Shown: in pieces, positions 1-46,472 of the stretch
Layout: each line of letters begins with the position of its first letter
Numbering within the stretch: position 1 is the stretch's first letter
Assembly (NCBI GenBank): GCA_964383745.1
Contig: CAYLHV010000006.1
Location: forward strand, 3,196-67,195
Direction of reading: 5' to 3'
Source of the DNA: an uncultured Rickettsiales bacterium
GTDB taxonomy: Bacteria; Pseudomonadota; Alphaproteobacteria; Rickettsiales; CAYLHV01
Length of the DNA stretch: 64,000 nucleotides
Notes under the pieces: generated by a model
Told to the model about the DNA's origin: nothing
What the model saw: only the letters and a program-made list of their open reading frames with translations
Database searches by the model: none
Translations under genes and position numbers: made by a program

Positions 1-94
1 GAAATATTTTTTACTGAATAGTAGACTATAATTTTGCAAGGTCATTTTATTTAAATTCTCCAATTTATACCATCTGTATTTGCTGTAAAATTTG

Positions 95-170
95 TGACCA
101 TCCAGAGTTGTTTTTCCTATGGAATATAACATAACTTATGGATTGCTACGCCTTCGGCTCGCGGGCGACG
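95..170 (-). repeat. RPE-like dispersed repeat, copy A (half element, reverse orientation)
   Basis: The reverse complement of about 98-169 aligns by eye with 46239-46311 and 49221-49291. Shared core: GTCRCCCGCGAGCC..GGCG..GCAA.CCAGAGT..ATTCCAYAGGAAAAACAACTCTGGAT. Confidence 0.6.
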
Positions 171-222
171 GAGATTACACCAACCATTAAGACAATGCTT
201 TGCGGTGAAGAGAGAAAAAAGA

Positions 223-299
<77 letters not shown>

Positions 300-3768: not shown

Positions 3769-4925
3769 ACATAGCGAGAAGCATTTTGATATTTCACCAC
3801 TCTAAATGATTTAACCTGTTGCTCCTGATCTCCAGAATATATCAAAAACCCATCTTTAGCTTTTGTAGTAAGTTTTTTAAAATATTCTAAATTTTCTAAA
3901 AACGATGGCTGAAATGTTTTGGAGGACTTGATTTCTATTGGAATTAATGAATTCCCTGATTTAACAATTAAATCAACCTCATGACCATTATGATCTCTAA
4001 AATAATATAAAGGAGGCTCAATGCCTTTATTAATAAAAGTTTTATATATATCTAAAATGACCATATTTTCCACCAAAGAGCCTCTTAATGGGTCTCTTTG
4101 AATTTGCGAAACATCATTTATATCTAGCAAATAGGAAGCTAAACCGACATCGGTAAAATATAATTTCGGAGATTTCACAACCCTCTTCCCAAAATTTTCA
4201 TAATATGGCGCAAGTCTAAACACAATGAAAGAAGCCTCAAGCACAGAGAGCCAATTTTGTATGGTATGATGCGACACGCCAATTTCATTGCTAATGGCAG
4301 AACTGGAAAATATCTGCCCTATTCTTCCTGCGCATATTTTCAGAAATTTTTGAAACAAAGTTAAATCTTTTAAATTAATAATTTGCCTAACATCTCTTTC
4401 CAAATAGGTGCCAACATAGTCTCTGTAAAGCTTCGTGGGGTTTAAACCATCTTTAAATATTCGAGGATATGACCCATAAAATAAATGCTCATCCAATGTC
4501 ATATTTGGTTTTGCTGTTTCCAGTTCAGAAATTGTCAAAGGAAGCAATTTTAATATAGCAGTTCTTCCAGCCAGAGATTGATTGATGTTTTCGGACAAAC
4601 TTAATTGATGGCTGCCCGTTAAAATATATTTACCTTTCACATCTTCGGAATCCACAATGGTTTGTATATATGACAAGATTGACGGCTCTCTTTGAATTTC
4701 ATCCAAAACACATCCCTGACTAAACCGATTAAGAAACCCTCTAGGATCTTCTTTGGCAAAATTCCTCTCATCAATATTTTCTAAATTAACATAAGGTTTC
4801 TGGGGAAAAATTTTTTTAACCAACGTTGTTTTTCCAGATTGTCTTGGGCCAATCAAACTAACCACAGGATAGCAGGAAGACATGCTTTTGAATTCTTCTT
4901 CGATTTCTCTTTTAATATATGACAT
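3765..4925 (-). CDS. AAA-family ATPase (AAA_14 / DUF4143-type ATP-binding protein)
   Basis: Walker A GPRQSGKTTL and Walker B-like VLDEIQ, with a C-terminal region typical of DUF4143 proteins. The ORF track starts at 5021. ATG 4925 (MSYIKREIEE...) gives the usual N-terminus for this family. Confidence 0.8.
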   Translation of the reverse strand: MSYIKREIEEEFKSMSSCYPVVSLIGPRQSGKTTLVKKIFPQKPYVNLENIDERNFAKEDPRGFLNRFSQGCVLDEIQREPSILSYIQTIVDSEDVKGKYILTGSHQLSLSENINQSLAGRTAILKLLPLTISELETAKPNMTLDEHLFYGSYPRIFKDGLNPTKLYRDYVGTYLERDVRQIINLKDLTLFQKFLKICAGRIGQIFSSSAISNEIGVSHHTIQNWLSVLEASFIVFRLAPYYENFGKRVVKSPKLYFTDVGLASYLLDINDVSQIQRDPLRGSLVENMVILDIYKTFINKGIEPPLYYFRDHNGHEVDLIVKSGNSLIPIEIKSSKTFQPSFLENLEYFKKLTTKAKDGFLIYSGDQEQQVKSFRVVKYQNASRYV

Positions 4926-6802: not shown

Positions 6803-8125
6803 ATGAATGCAGCACAAACAAAAAAATTCAACAATAAAGTAAATATGATCAAAAATAATCAAATTGCCCATGTTTTCATCGACTTTGATAATTACGGCAT
6901 GACAGAAGCTGATGTCATCACGCTTGGAGCCGCAATTGCAGTCAGCACAAGCCTCACAGAGTTTAAATTTGAGTGGAACCACTCAACTCCAGCCGGAATT
7001 GCAGCGCTTGCTAATGGCGTTGCAGCTTGCGCTTCTTTAAAATCTTTTAAAACTTGGGGGCAGAATCTTGATGCAAGCCAATTAGGGGATTTTGTTAATG
7101 CATTGAAAAATAATCATAATATCGATGATTTTGGAGTCTATCACGCACCAATTGGTGATGCTGGCGCAGCCGTAATTGCTGATGCAATTGAAAATGCTGG
7201 TTTAAAAAAGCTAACCCTTTTCAATGCAGGCGTGTCAGATGCCGGTGTACAATCAATTTCGGGCGCTTTAACAAACAACCCAAATTCCTTAGAAAAACTT
7301 GATTTGCCAAATAATCAAATCACAGATGTGGGTGTGACAAGTTTGGCGAGCGCTGTTGCAATTGCTGGAAATTTAGAGCATCTTGGACTTGCTTCCAACC
7401 AACAAATCACAAATCTTAGTGATTTAGGGGTGGCAATTAAAAATAACAACAATATCAAGCAGTTAGACCTGTCTTCTAATCAAATAGATGATTCCAGCAT
7501 GGCAAGTTTTGCAAGCAATCTTGAATCTTCCGCAATTGAAAATTTGTCTCTATCAGGCAACTCAATTTCCGACGCAGGGCTTGAAACTTTGATCATTTCC
7601 GCATCAAAATTGTCAAATTTAGGAAATTTAAACGCAGATATTCCAATGTTCGACCCAAATTCCGATGTTGAAACTGTCAGTCTTGCAGAAAAATTTCACG
7701 AATTAATGAAAAATAGTCAACAAAATCAAGAAGATTCCATAAACTCTGAAAGATATGAATATAAAATCATCGAAGCCAGGAAAGAAGTGAGAAAAATTCT
7801 CGAAGAAGATCAGGAACTCATTGATTTAAAACAAAATGACCCAGCCAAATTTGAAGAAATAAAAAAAGCCTTACAGGAAAAATCAATTGAGGCAAATGGT
7901 AAAACCGCTGAGGAAATCAAAGAGGAAATTGCTGTCTTAAAAGAGGAGGAAGTTAAGAAAGAAGTGAAAGTGGAGGTGGAGGCCAAAGCAGCTAAAGCCG
8001 AAAAAAGCGAGGCGAGACTTGTTGCAGAAGAGCACAAATCAGCCAAAGCTGAGCCAGTTAAACCAGCCGAAGAAAGCGAAGTGAAACTCCTTGCAGAAGA
8101 ACCACCGGTTGCAGATGAGCTTTGA
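6803..8125 (+). CDS. leucine-rich repeat protein (ribonuclease-inhibitor/RNI-like LRR) with an E/K-rich C-terminal region
   Basis: Repeats of about 28 aa: LKKLTLFNAGVSDAGVQSISGAL, LEKLDLPNNQITDVGVTSLASAV, IKQLDLSSNQIDDSSMASFASNL, IENLSLSGNSISDAGLETL. The C-terminal ~130 aa are Glu/Lys-rich and the protein ends in -PPVADEL. Confidence 0.8.
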   Translation: MNAAQTKKFNNKVNMIKNNQIAHVFIDFDNYGMTEADVITLGAAIAVSTSLTEFKFEWNHSTPAGIAALANGVAACASLKSFKTWGQNLDASQLGDFVNALKNNHNIDDFGVYHAPIGDAGAAVIADAIENAGLKKLTLFNAGVSDAGVQSISGALTNNPNSLEKLDLPNNQITDVGVTSLASAVAIAGNLEHLGLASNQQITNLSDLGVAIKNNNNIKQLDLSSNQIDDSSMASFASNLESSAIENLSLSGNSISDAGLETLIISASKLSNLGNLNADIPMFDPNSDVETVSLAEKFHELMKNSQQNQEDSINSERYEYKIIEARKEVRKILEEDQELIDLKQNDPAKFEEIKKALQEKSIEANGKTAEEIKEEIAVLKEEEVKKEVKVEVEAKAAKAEKSEARLVAEEHKSAKAEPVKPAEESEVKLLAEEPPVADEL

Positions 8126-8205
8126 ATTTTGCAAATTGGGCTAGAAGAATATTAATTTATAGCTGACATGTTGTTAATATTGCGTTAGTATTATACTCCA
8201 CAATG

Positions 8206-8371
8206 GAGCCCCCCCAATTTTGTCATTGCGAGCGCCAGCGCGGCAAACCAGAGTTATTTACGTTGGATTTTTTCACATAGTTTTCATCGAAAAAAATCCA
8301 GAGTTTTTTTCCTACGCGGGAAGTAAAAATAACTCTGAACCTTTACAGCAATGACGGAAATTTGGGGGCTC
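8206..8371. repeat. RPE/MITE-like palindromic element, full-length copy B
   Basis: Terminal inverted repeats GAGCCCCCCCAATTTTGTCATTGC ... GCAATGACGGAAATTTGGGGGCTC. Nested internal stems CAGAGTTATTT/AAATAACTCTG and GGATTTTTTC/GAAAAAAATCC. The left arm GTCATTGCGAGCGCCAGCGCGGCAAACCAGAG is identical to the start of copy E (49221). Confidence 0.7.
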
Positions 8372-8572
8372 TGCAATGAGAAAAATGGACGCGCGCACTT
8401 AAAAAACGCGCAAATCTTCATCTTCCTCCCTTTCCTAGAGATAAAGCTGCATTTTAAATTTTATCCAGGAAATTTCTATCAGTCATCAATCTCTTTTTTA
8501 CAGCTCTATTAAAAATCTAATGTCCCGTCTATATATAAGAAATCCAATAGTAAAAAAAATTTATATCAACTC

Positions 8573-46019: not shown

Positions 46020-46238
46020 TGGTTAATCCTCTGATTTTATTTTTTTGCACATAATCACATAAGATAGCAAATTACAAAATGAAACACAATGTTTTTTAGA
46101 GATGTTTTTTTTATGGTGATGAAATTCTGTTGGAATAAGAATCTTTACAATGACGGACCCTTCCTCATACCGTTACCTACACCCCCTACTTCGTCACGAA
46201 TTTCCTCACTTTTTTACCCGCGAGCCTTTCCCAAAGCT

Positions 46239-46472
46239 GTCACCCGCGAGCCAAAGGCGCGGCAAACCAGAGTCATGCTACATTCCACAGGAAAAACAAC
46301 TCTGGATCACCAAAAAATTTCACAACAAATACGGAGAGCCTCCCCAAAAAAATCAAATCTCAGAAGACTCTTCCACCTCTCCCACACACTCCAAATCTTC
46401 TGAAGCGCAAGTCTCCTCCTCTTGCGAAGAAATAACCTCCGATTCTTGGCCACTAAACAGCGAAGCAAATGT
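46239..46472 (+). repeat. direct repeat D: RPE-like core (46239-46311), shared spacer, and the last 39 codons of the ankyrin gene
   Basis: Aligns by eye with 49221-49493. GTCACCCGCGAGCCAAAGGCGCGGCAAACCAGAGTCATGCTACATTCCACAGGAAAAACAAC.CTGGATCACCAAAAAATTTCACAACAAATACGGAGA is nearly identical. The gene tail is also shared: TCAAATCTCAGAAGACTC..CACCTCTCCCACACA.TCCAAATCTTCTGAAGCGCAAGTCTCCTCCTCTTGCGAA. Confidence 0.7.

Follow-up and report, generated by a model that had tools for sequence, protein, structure and literature searches.

Repeat units of the window

The DNA analysed here (the window) is a stretch of 64 kb. It contains six units of a directional hairpin repeat at five loci, all of them intergenic and bordered by tRNA-Pro, LRR genes, ANK genes, orphan ORFs or a ParC/GyrA-like gene (Table 1). 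The units were detected by nhmmer with a profile of the aligned units (E 1e-22 to 1.5e-9), and no further unit was found in the 64 kb window below E = 0.01. The 12-mer GTCATTGCGAGC has three exact occurrences in the window, and GCGCGGCAAWCYAG has four against 0.48 expected, a count that 0 of 100 shuffles reach. These counts and the profile E-values rule out chance as the source of the repeat. The original prediction had described a dispersed palindromic repeat family with five copies, all intergenic and next to accessory genes or a tRNA. The family and its setting are confirmed by the profile search, and pairwise matches together with nhmmer recover the four copies listed beside the 8206 element. 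The number five is right for the loci but not for the units, which are six since the 8206 element is an inverted doublet whose right unit lost its hairpin.

Table 1. Repeat units and related features of the window (A, left unit of the doublet; B to E, single units)
Feature	Position	Strand	Description and evidence
Full inverted doublet	8206..8371	.	Two units, GTC heads outward, tails inward; sequence, folds, unit alignment
Left unit of doublet (A)	8221..8277	+	nhmmer E 1.5e-9; 8222-8254 identical to 49221-49253
Right unit of doublet	8291..8369	-	Unit alignment; nhmmer E 1.3e-13
Unit B, single	86..172	-	Inverted-repeat matches; nhmmer E 2.9e-22
Unit C, single	10371..10433	+	CGTCATTGCGAGCCAAAGGCGCGGCAATCTAG and short tail; nhmmer E 6e-12
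Unit D, single	46236..46337	+	nhmmer E 1.3e-22; fold z -3.1
Unit E, single	49218..49317	+	nhmmer E 3e-20; fold z -0.2
Debris beside unit D	46143..46226	.	Read from sequence, compared with 8342-8360
GGAG(A)GCCYCCCC sites	8205-8215, 8364-8374, 46333-46345, 49326-49355, 51684-51694

The units share the core (C/T)GTCATTGCGAGC-loop-GCGCGGCAA(A/T)C, in which a GTC head is followed by an imperfect hairpin and then by a C tail. In the unit alignment it forms a directional module with the head (C/T)GTCA, the imperfect hairpin TTGC-GAGC-loop-GCGCG-GCAA(A/T) and then C. With the head extended to 5' (C/T)GTCAT, the stem reads ATTGC-GAGC / GCGCG-GCAAT and encloses a loop of 3-4 nt. The GTC head, the hairpin and the post-stem C are present in the left unit of the doublet and in units C, D and E, and the head of unit B is degenerate (CGTCGC). 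A and E share the inner hairpin GCG-CCAG-CGC, C and D have the variant GCC-AAA-GGC, and the inner stem is paired in both variants. Units B, D and E and the right half of the 8206 element also have a second hairpin, CCAGAGT...GGAAAAACAACTCTGG, together with an A-rich tail; in unit D the core hairpin is followed by CCAGAGT...AACTCTGG and then by the tail. This second hairpin is lineage-specific. Folds of the solo units are weak (z -0.2 to -3.1), as are those of the core hairpin alone (z -0.2 to -0.7), and the second hairpin of unit E is disrupted by two substitutions. Judged from these weak predicted folds and the broken hairpin of E, the copies look decayed.

Unit B lies 48 nt downstream of tRNA-Pro (223-299, minus strand) in the same orientation as the tRNA. 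Unit C, near lpxC, is flanked by two divergently oriented orphan ORFs (9658-10266, minus; 10458-10769, plus). Unit D directly adjoins the 3' end of the minus-strand ANK gene 46353-49052 and lies upstream of the ParC/GyrA-like gene, and unit E is 3' of the minus-strand ANK gene 49377-49967. Relative to neighbouring genes the units have no consistent orientation: D and E are antisense to the ANK genes, the unit at 10371 separates two divergent genes, and the orientation at 8206 is co-directional.

Pairwise comparison reveals how the units are related. Besides the exact identity of 33 nt between the left unit of the doublet and unit E, 20 nt are identical between D and C (46246-46265 and 10379-10398). 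D and B are 85% identical over 66 nt (46243-46307 and 165-100, minus strand), and D and E are 97.5% identical over 81 nt (46257-46337 and 49237-49317). The units are mosaic. The hairpin of E equals that of A over 33 nt, the 81-nt tail of E is 98% identical to the tail of D, and D itself carries a hairpin of the C type. Such mosaics suggest recombination or gene conversion between units, and the recombination role proposed earlier for these repeats fits the combination of an A hairpin and a D tail in E. D and E are each found just 3' of paralogous minus-strand ANK genes, and their similarity continues into those genes. On the sequence, the D/E pair represents, at least in part, a single segmental duplication. 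The copies at 46236 and 49218 are real family members, as claimed, but this shared ANK-gene flank means that they are not two independent insertions.

The fragments that had been noted near 46141-46236 are real but small. They comprise a half stem, ACCCGCGAGCC, at 46216-46226, and a reversed head remnant, CTTTACAATGACGGAC, at 46143-46158, which is similar to the right terminus of the 8206 element.

Four Logan contigs, all of run SRR15237806, match the window at 100% identity, with ends at 271, 4336-4364, 8228-8250, 10374-10396 and 13433. The source organism is therefore probably present in that run. The breaks at 8228/8250 and 10374/10396 fall within the core hairpins of A and C. This is as expected for repeated or palindromic sequence and gives no copy count.

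The inverted doublet at 8206-8371

The element at 8206-8371 is a nested palindrome of 166 nt which folds into one long nested hairpin. Its predicted ssDNA fold has -32.3 kcal/mol against -17.0 +/- 2.9 for dinucleotide shuffles (z -5.3), and 0 of 200 shuffles are as good; folding as RNA gives z -6.2. Terminal inverted repeats and nested internal stems had been described for this element, and both are present: the outer arms, GAGCCCCCCCAATTTTGTCATTGC and GCAATGACGGAAATTTGGGGGCTC, pair with each other in the fold. The order of sequence along the element is GAGCCCCCCCAATTTT-GTCATTGCGAGCGCCAGCGCGGCAAACCAGAG ... CTCTGAACCTTTACAGCAATGAC-GGAAATTTGGGGGCTC. The left unit contains the core hairpin TGTCATTGCGAGCGCCAGCGCGGCAAACCAG at 8221-8251. 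The right unit has kept its head, CCGTCATTGC, and the second hairpin, and its core hairpin is deleted. Outside both heads lies a 16-nt inverted repeat, GAGCCCCCCCAATTTT.

The motif GGAG(A)GCCYCCCC, which makes up the outer arms of the doublet, is enriched in the window, where it matches 8 times compared with an expectation of about 1. The motif also makes small hairpins directly 3' of two ANK genes on the minus strand, and one more copy lies about 70 nt 3' of a third. Of the two hairpins just 3' of ANK genes, only the first (46332-46346) scored as terminator-like. The doublet may be an insertion inside a GGAG(A)GCCYCCCC palindrome. REP dimers within host palindromes have been described in other species (Di Nocera 2013, PMC3733652), and the outer 16-nt repeat of the doublet may have originated in this way.

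The same hairpin flanks ssn homologues in other genomes

When one genome per species was scanned with the core pattern (GTCATTGCGAGC, 3-6 nt, GCGYGGCAA), it was found in at least 120 stretches from many phyla. Hosts among the listed matches include Dehalococcoidia, Mucilaginibacter (Bacteroidota), Patescibacteria, Babeliaceae, Clostridia, Elusimicrobia and beta- and gammaproteobacteria. Among these matches the tail AATC(C/T) is constant and an inverted partner is often present 15-30 nt away. Since the core is shared across phyla, it is not lineage-specific.

Two further features of the listed matches concern the core itself. Its 24-26 nt are nearly identical at every base even between very distant phyla, and the loop region is often GCG-N-AGC. 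The sequence GCG-N-AGC is a very stable mini-hairpin of the d(GCGAAGC) type.

All-against-all clustering of the ORFs at the 120 listed loci yielded a single informative recurrent neighbour, a GIY-YIG protein of about 97 aa (PF01541) found at 3 loci; the other recurrent neighbours at these loci belong to generic families such as kinases and ABC ATPases. The three loci are labelled Woesebacteria, Campylobacteraceae and unclassified bacterium. In all three, the hairpin lies 46-73 nt downstream of the GIY-YIG gene in equal relative orientation, and hairpin units are also found upstream in both of the loci that have an upstream flank. As a new link this partnership was dropped, for it was published in 2025 as Ssn/NTS (PMC11893778).

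In that work, the Neisseria NTS (CGTCATTCCCGCGMAVGCGGGAATCYRG) and its relatives, named Ssn-related motifs (SRMs), flank ssnA, a GIY-YIG gene of 94 aa, in an NTS-ssnA-NTS architecture with the hairpin heads outward (Chenal 2025, PMC11893778). SsnA binds one strand of the hairpin exclusively, in single-stranded form only, and places its nick a few nt 5' of the hairpin. A Wolbachia Ssn homologue cuts its own motif, and Rickettsia and Wolbachia are among the most SRM-rich genomes. It was suggested that NTS-ssn-NTS behaves like an insertion sequence (PMC11893778), and natural transformation in Neisseria is affected by the Ssn system (PMC11893778).

The association of the window hairpin with ssn homologues was analysed in 80 metagenome loci encoding GIY-YIG homologues, which are 48% identical to a 94-aa protein of N. 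gonorrhoeae taken as the SsnA orthologue. The 8-mer GCAATGAC is found within 200 nt downstream of the ssn homologue in 48 of 74 loci (median +33), and GTCATTGC within 200 nt upstream in 45 of 76 (median -55). These two 8-mers reach a density of 6.1 per kb close to the gene, compared with 0.49 per kb in the rest of the same loci, a 12.5-fold enrichment. Full units with heads outward are present on both sides in 27 of 71 loci and in 0 control draws. In total, units of the ATTGCGA type occur in the flanks of 58 of the 80 loci. Other loci instead have hairpins of the ATTCCCGC or the ATTCTGAG type, mostly with one type on both sides. In other genomes, the ATTGCGAG type thus flanks cd10448-like GIY-YIG ssn genes, as Ssn-related motifs do. 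The gene is also flanked by the host's own CGTC hairpins in N. gonorrhoeae, A. lipoferum, S. meliloti and N. aromaticivorans. By this association, the hairpin of the window would be an Ssn partner motif.

In Azospirillum lipoferum 4B, plasmid AZO_p3 (255106-256190), an ssn-like GIY-YIG gene is located between sufB and sufC with a hairpin doublet on each side. It looks like an insertion into an operon, which fits mobile behaviour.

Neither hmmsearch nor tblastn with some 80 Ssn proteins as queries (best E 0.24) found an ssn gene or a remnant of one in the 64 kb window. A blastn search of plasmids with the doublet and unit E matched only the core of about 30 nt, in Novosphingobium and Variovorax. 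Searching the literature by the DNA string of the repeat returned unrelated primer matches only.

Comparison with known hairpin repeats

The head of Ssn-related motifs, HGTCWY, is found in the window as TGTCAT (8221), CGTCAT (10372 and 49220) and TGTCAC (46238); that of B is degenerate (CGTCGC). The hairpin also has the form of these motifs, an imperfect palindrome of 20-50 nt followed by C, with the stem ATTGC/GCAA(T/A) and an inner GCG/CGC or GCC/GGC in the predicted folds. Like NTS and SRMs, the window units are directional hairpins with a (C/T)GTCAT head, a short loop and a post-stem C, they are intergenic and multi-copy, and the doublet at 8206 with its outward heads has the geometry of NTS-ssnA-NTS. 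The stem differs, being ATTGCGAG...GCAAT in the window and pyrimidine-rich ATTCCCGC in NTS. The window units also differ in having the lineage-specific second hairpin and the outer inverted repeat, and in being without ssn in the window.

The published SRM string HGTCWYN(0-2)YYVSBRHN(0-5)WNVSBRGN(0-2)RNCYNB gives no match in the window, although it finds NTS-type test sequences. The string rejects the ATTGCGAG stem because of a mismatch at its two pyrimidine (YY) stem positions. It matches flanking units in just 5 of the 80 ssn-homologue loci, compared with 58 that have the ATTGCGA type. The ATTGCGAG stem is missed by the string and yet is the commonest flank of the sampled ssn homologues, so string-based surveys under-count these repeats. 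Types ATTCTGAG and ATCCTGAG flank other homologues and are probably missed as well; the string did not accept one test sequence of the ATTCTGAG type.

CGTC-tagged REPs combine a CGTC (or TGTC/CCTC) head with a stem that begins with AT, a 4-5-nt loop and a CCA-like tail; they occur mostly in alphaproteobacteria, and no dedicated transposase was found for them (Di Nocera 2013, PMC3733652). The window units resemble them in the CGTC/TGTC head, the AT-starting stem and the CCA-type tail, which is ACCA or TCCA in 4 of 5 full units and TCTA in C, as well as in alphaproteobacterial predominance and frequent inverted dimers. Their loops are 3-4 nt long compared with 4-5. The main difference from CGTC-1 to CGTC-4 is found in the stem, which is interrupted by an internal loop in the window (5 + 3 bp) and is a clean, continuous 8-9 bp in the REPs. 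The GTC head, the hairpin and the C tail, together with the ssn association, make CGTC-tagged REP or Ssn-related motif a better label for the family than those proposed earlier.

REPIN-RAYT systems, reportedly described by Bertels and Rainey in 2011, pair GTAG-headed repeats with a Y1 (HUH) transposase. The likeness lies in inverted doublets of short hairpins which are thought to be non-autonomous partners of a single-copy, repeat-flanked nuclease gene. The window head is CGTC/TGTC, not GTAG, and by association the partner would be a GIY-YIG nuclease.

Weighing of the explanations

In the original prediction the family was called RPE/MITE-like, and both parts of this name can be weighed against the structure of the units. 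A classical MITE would derive from a transposon by deletion; it would have terminal inverted repeats, be moved by a DDE-type transposase, leave target-site duplications and occur in several full-length copies beside a related autonomous IS. The terminal repeats stand, since 8206-8371 has inverted repeats of about 24 nt and a nested palindrome, and a possible 5-nt direct repeat, CAATG, surrounds 8206-8373, which is weak as it was found by allowing offsets. Against a MITE, there is a single full-length doublet, the other copies are one-ended single units, no transposase adjoins any copy in the window, and the core is a pan-bacterial hairpin of the Ssn type. We therefore regard a MITE as very unlikely. 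Membership in one of the named families RPE-1 to RPE-10, capable of in-frame insertion into genes, is also unlikely, though slightly less so. The host is related to Rickettsiales, and the likeness to RPEs is genuine in that a palindromic repeat of about 100-170 nt with a CGTC terminus occurs in a Rickettsiales-like genome. The RPEs of R. conorii end in CGTC, and RPE-6 and RPE-4 are CGTC-1 and CGTC-4 REPs, respectively (Di Nocera 2013, PMC3733652). Against a named family, six-frame peptides of the copies match no NCBIfam model and 0 of 6 units lie in coding sequence, a small sample from the 64-kb window. The units thus differ from RPEs in showing neither in-frame gene insertion nor a match to the RPE1 domain, the model of which we take to be part of the NCBIfam release searched. 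Rickettsia palindromic elements were reportedly described by Ogata et al. in 2000 and 2002. The second hairpin and the outer repeat of the window units have no match in the collections searched, plasmids included, which also argues against a named RPE.

Alternatively, the family could be a structured RNA element instead of a DNA-level repeat, acting in termination or transcript stabilisation or as a small RNA. For such a role speak the strong RNA fold of 8206-8371, the position of D and E just 3' of ANK genes, and the frequent suggestion that REPs function as hairpins in RNA (Di Nocera 2013, PMC3733652). Yet no Rfam family matches the repeat: searches of the window at the gathering threshold and of 8100-8500 at E <= 10 (best E 0.49) gave nothing but tRNAs and noise. 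Single units fold weakly compared with shuffles, their orientation to neighbouring genes is inconsistent, and no terminator-type T tract follows them. On the last two grounds the terminator role suggested earlier is rejected for the units themselves, and an RNA element as a whole is highly improbable. We give almost no credence to the view that there is no real family, merely a local duplication of one stretch together with ankyrin genes. It would account for D and E, which share 81 nt at 98% and the adjoining ANK 3' ends. It is contradicted by the units at 86, 8221 and 10371 in unrelated contexts, by the hairpin of E, which matches the 8221 unit exactly but differs from D, and by a core that is common to many phyla.

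Proposed relation to Ssn

It is probable that the repeats of the window are members of the CGTC-REP/SRM superfamily with a mode of action based on Ssn. The partner would be an Ssn, a single-domain GIY-YIG nuclease of about 94 aa. As in the characterised members, the enzymes of Neisseria and Wolbachia, it would recognise the ssDNA hairpin on one strand and nick a few nt 5' of the head. The source genome presumably encodes a cognate Ssn or formerly did so. By analogy with the characterised systems, these copies may have spread via Ssn and may still be bound or cut by it. Given their weak predicted folds and the one degenerate head (CGTCGC), the single units are perhaps no longer Ssn substrates.

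The doublet at 8206-8371 has the heads-outward geometry of an ssn unit and lacks the gene. It can therefore be read as a shell of NTS-ssn-NTS without the gene, that is, as a non-autonomous doublet with about 100 nt where the gene would be. The four single units would be decaying solo copies that were spread by the Ssn system. These relics would later have been shuffled by recombination and by ANK-gene duplication, and one solo unit was probably carried along when an ankyrin gene was duplicated with its flank. The outer 16-nt repeat of the doublet falls beyond the expected Ssn cut site, and this model leaves it unexplained.

A more specific form of the Ssn reading is that the ATTGCGAG-stem hairpin represents a distinct pan-bacterial class of SRM, missed by the string and served by its own Ssn clade, and that the 8206 doublet is its gene-less shell. 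We put this forward tentatively, as a possibility that we rate below even chances. If true, it would be direct evidence that mobile Ssn units leave MITE-like derivatives, and it would explain the spread of RPE-type repeats in Rickettsiales-like symbionts.

The repeats are a known kind in a new and poorly sampled host, with the stem variant that the string misses and the lineage-specific second hairpin. They are correctly labelled as Ssn-type (CGTC-tagged) hairpin repeats, neither a new ncRNA nor the remnant of a conventional transposon. This label predicts a small GIY-YIG ssDNA nuclease in the source genome, at present or in the past. The gene-less doublet with outward heads would also support the view of Chenal et al. 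that NTS-ssn-NTS is like an insertion sequence, and it bears on how RPE-like repeats spread in intracellular alphaproteobacteria.

The host and its ankyrin genes

The alanyl-tRNA synthetase (AlaRS) encoded in the window has 100% matches only in one NCBI protein, on a contig of 84 kb, and in a Logan contig of SRR15237806. Its best named relatives are in Rickettsiaceae, Candidatus Tisiphia, Trichorickettsia and Holosporaceae, with 55-59% identity. This points to a deep-branching alphaproteobacterium near Rickettsiales that is rich in ANK and LRR genes and probably intracellular. Together with lpxC, the divergence of AlaRS and the richness in ANK and LRR genes suggest a lineage of intracellular symbionts that is still undescribed.

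The ankyrin-repeat genes form a minus-strand cluster (46353-49052, 49377-49967, 51767-54160 and about 54200-56300) with a periodicity of 99 nt and a strongly negative GC skew. Three blocks of this cluster, 52082-52519, 54583-54999 and 55636-56043, are mutually 66-79% identical, which points to recent paralogous expansion.
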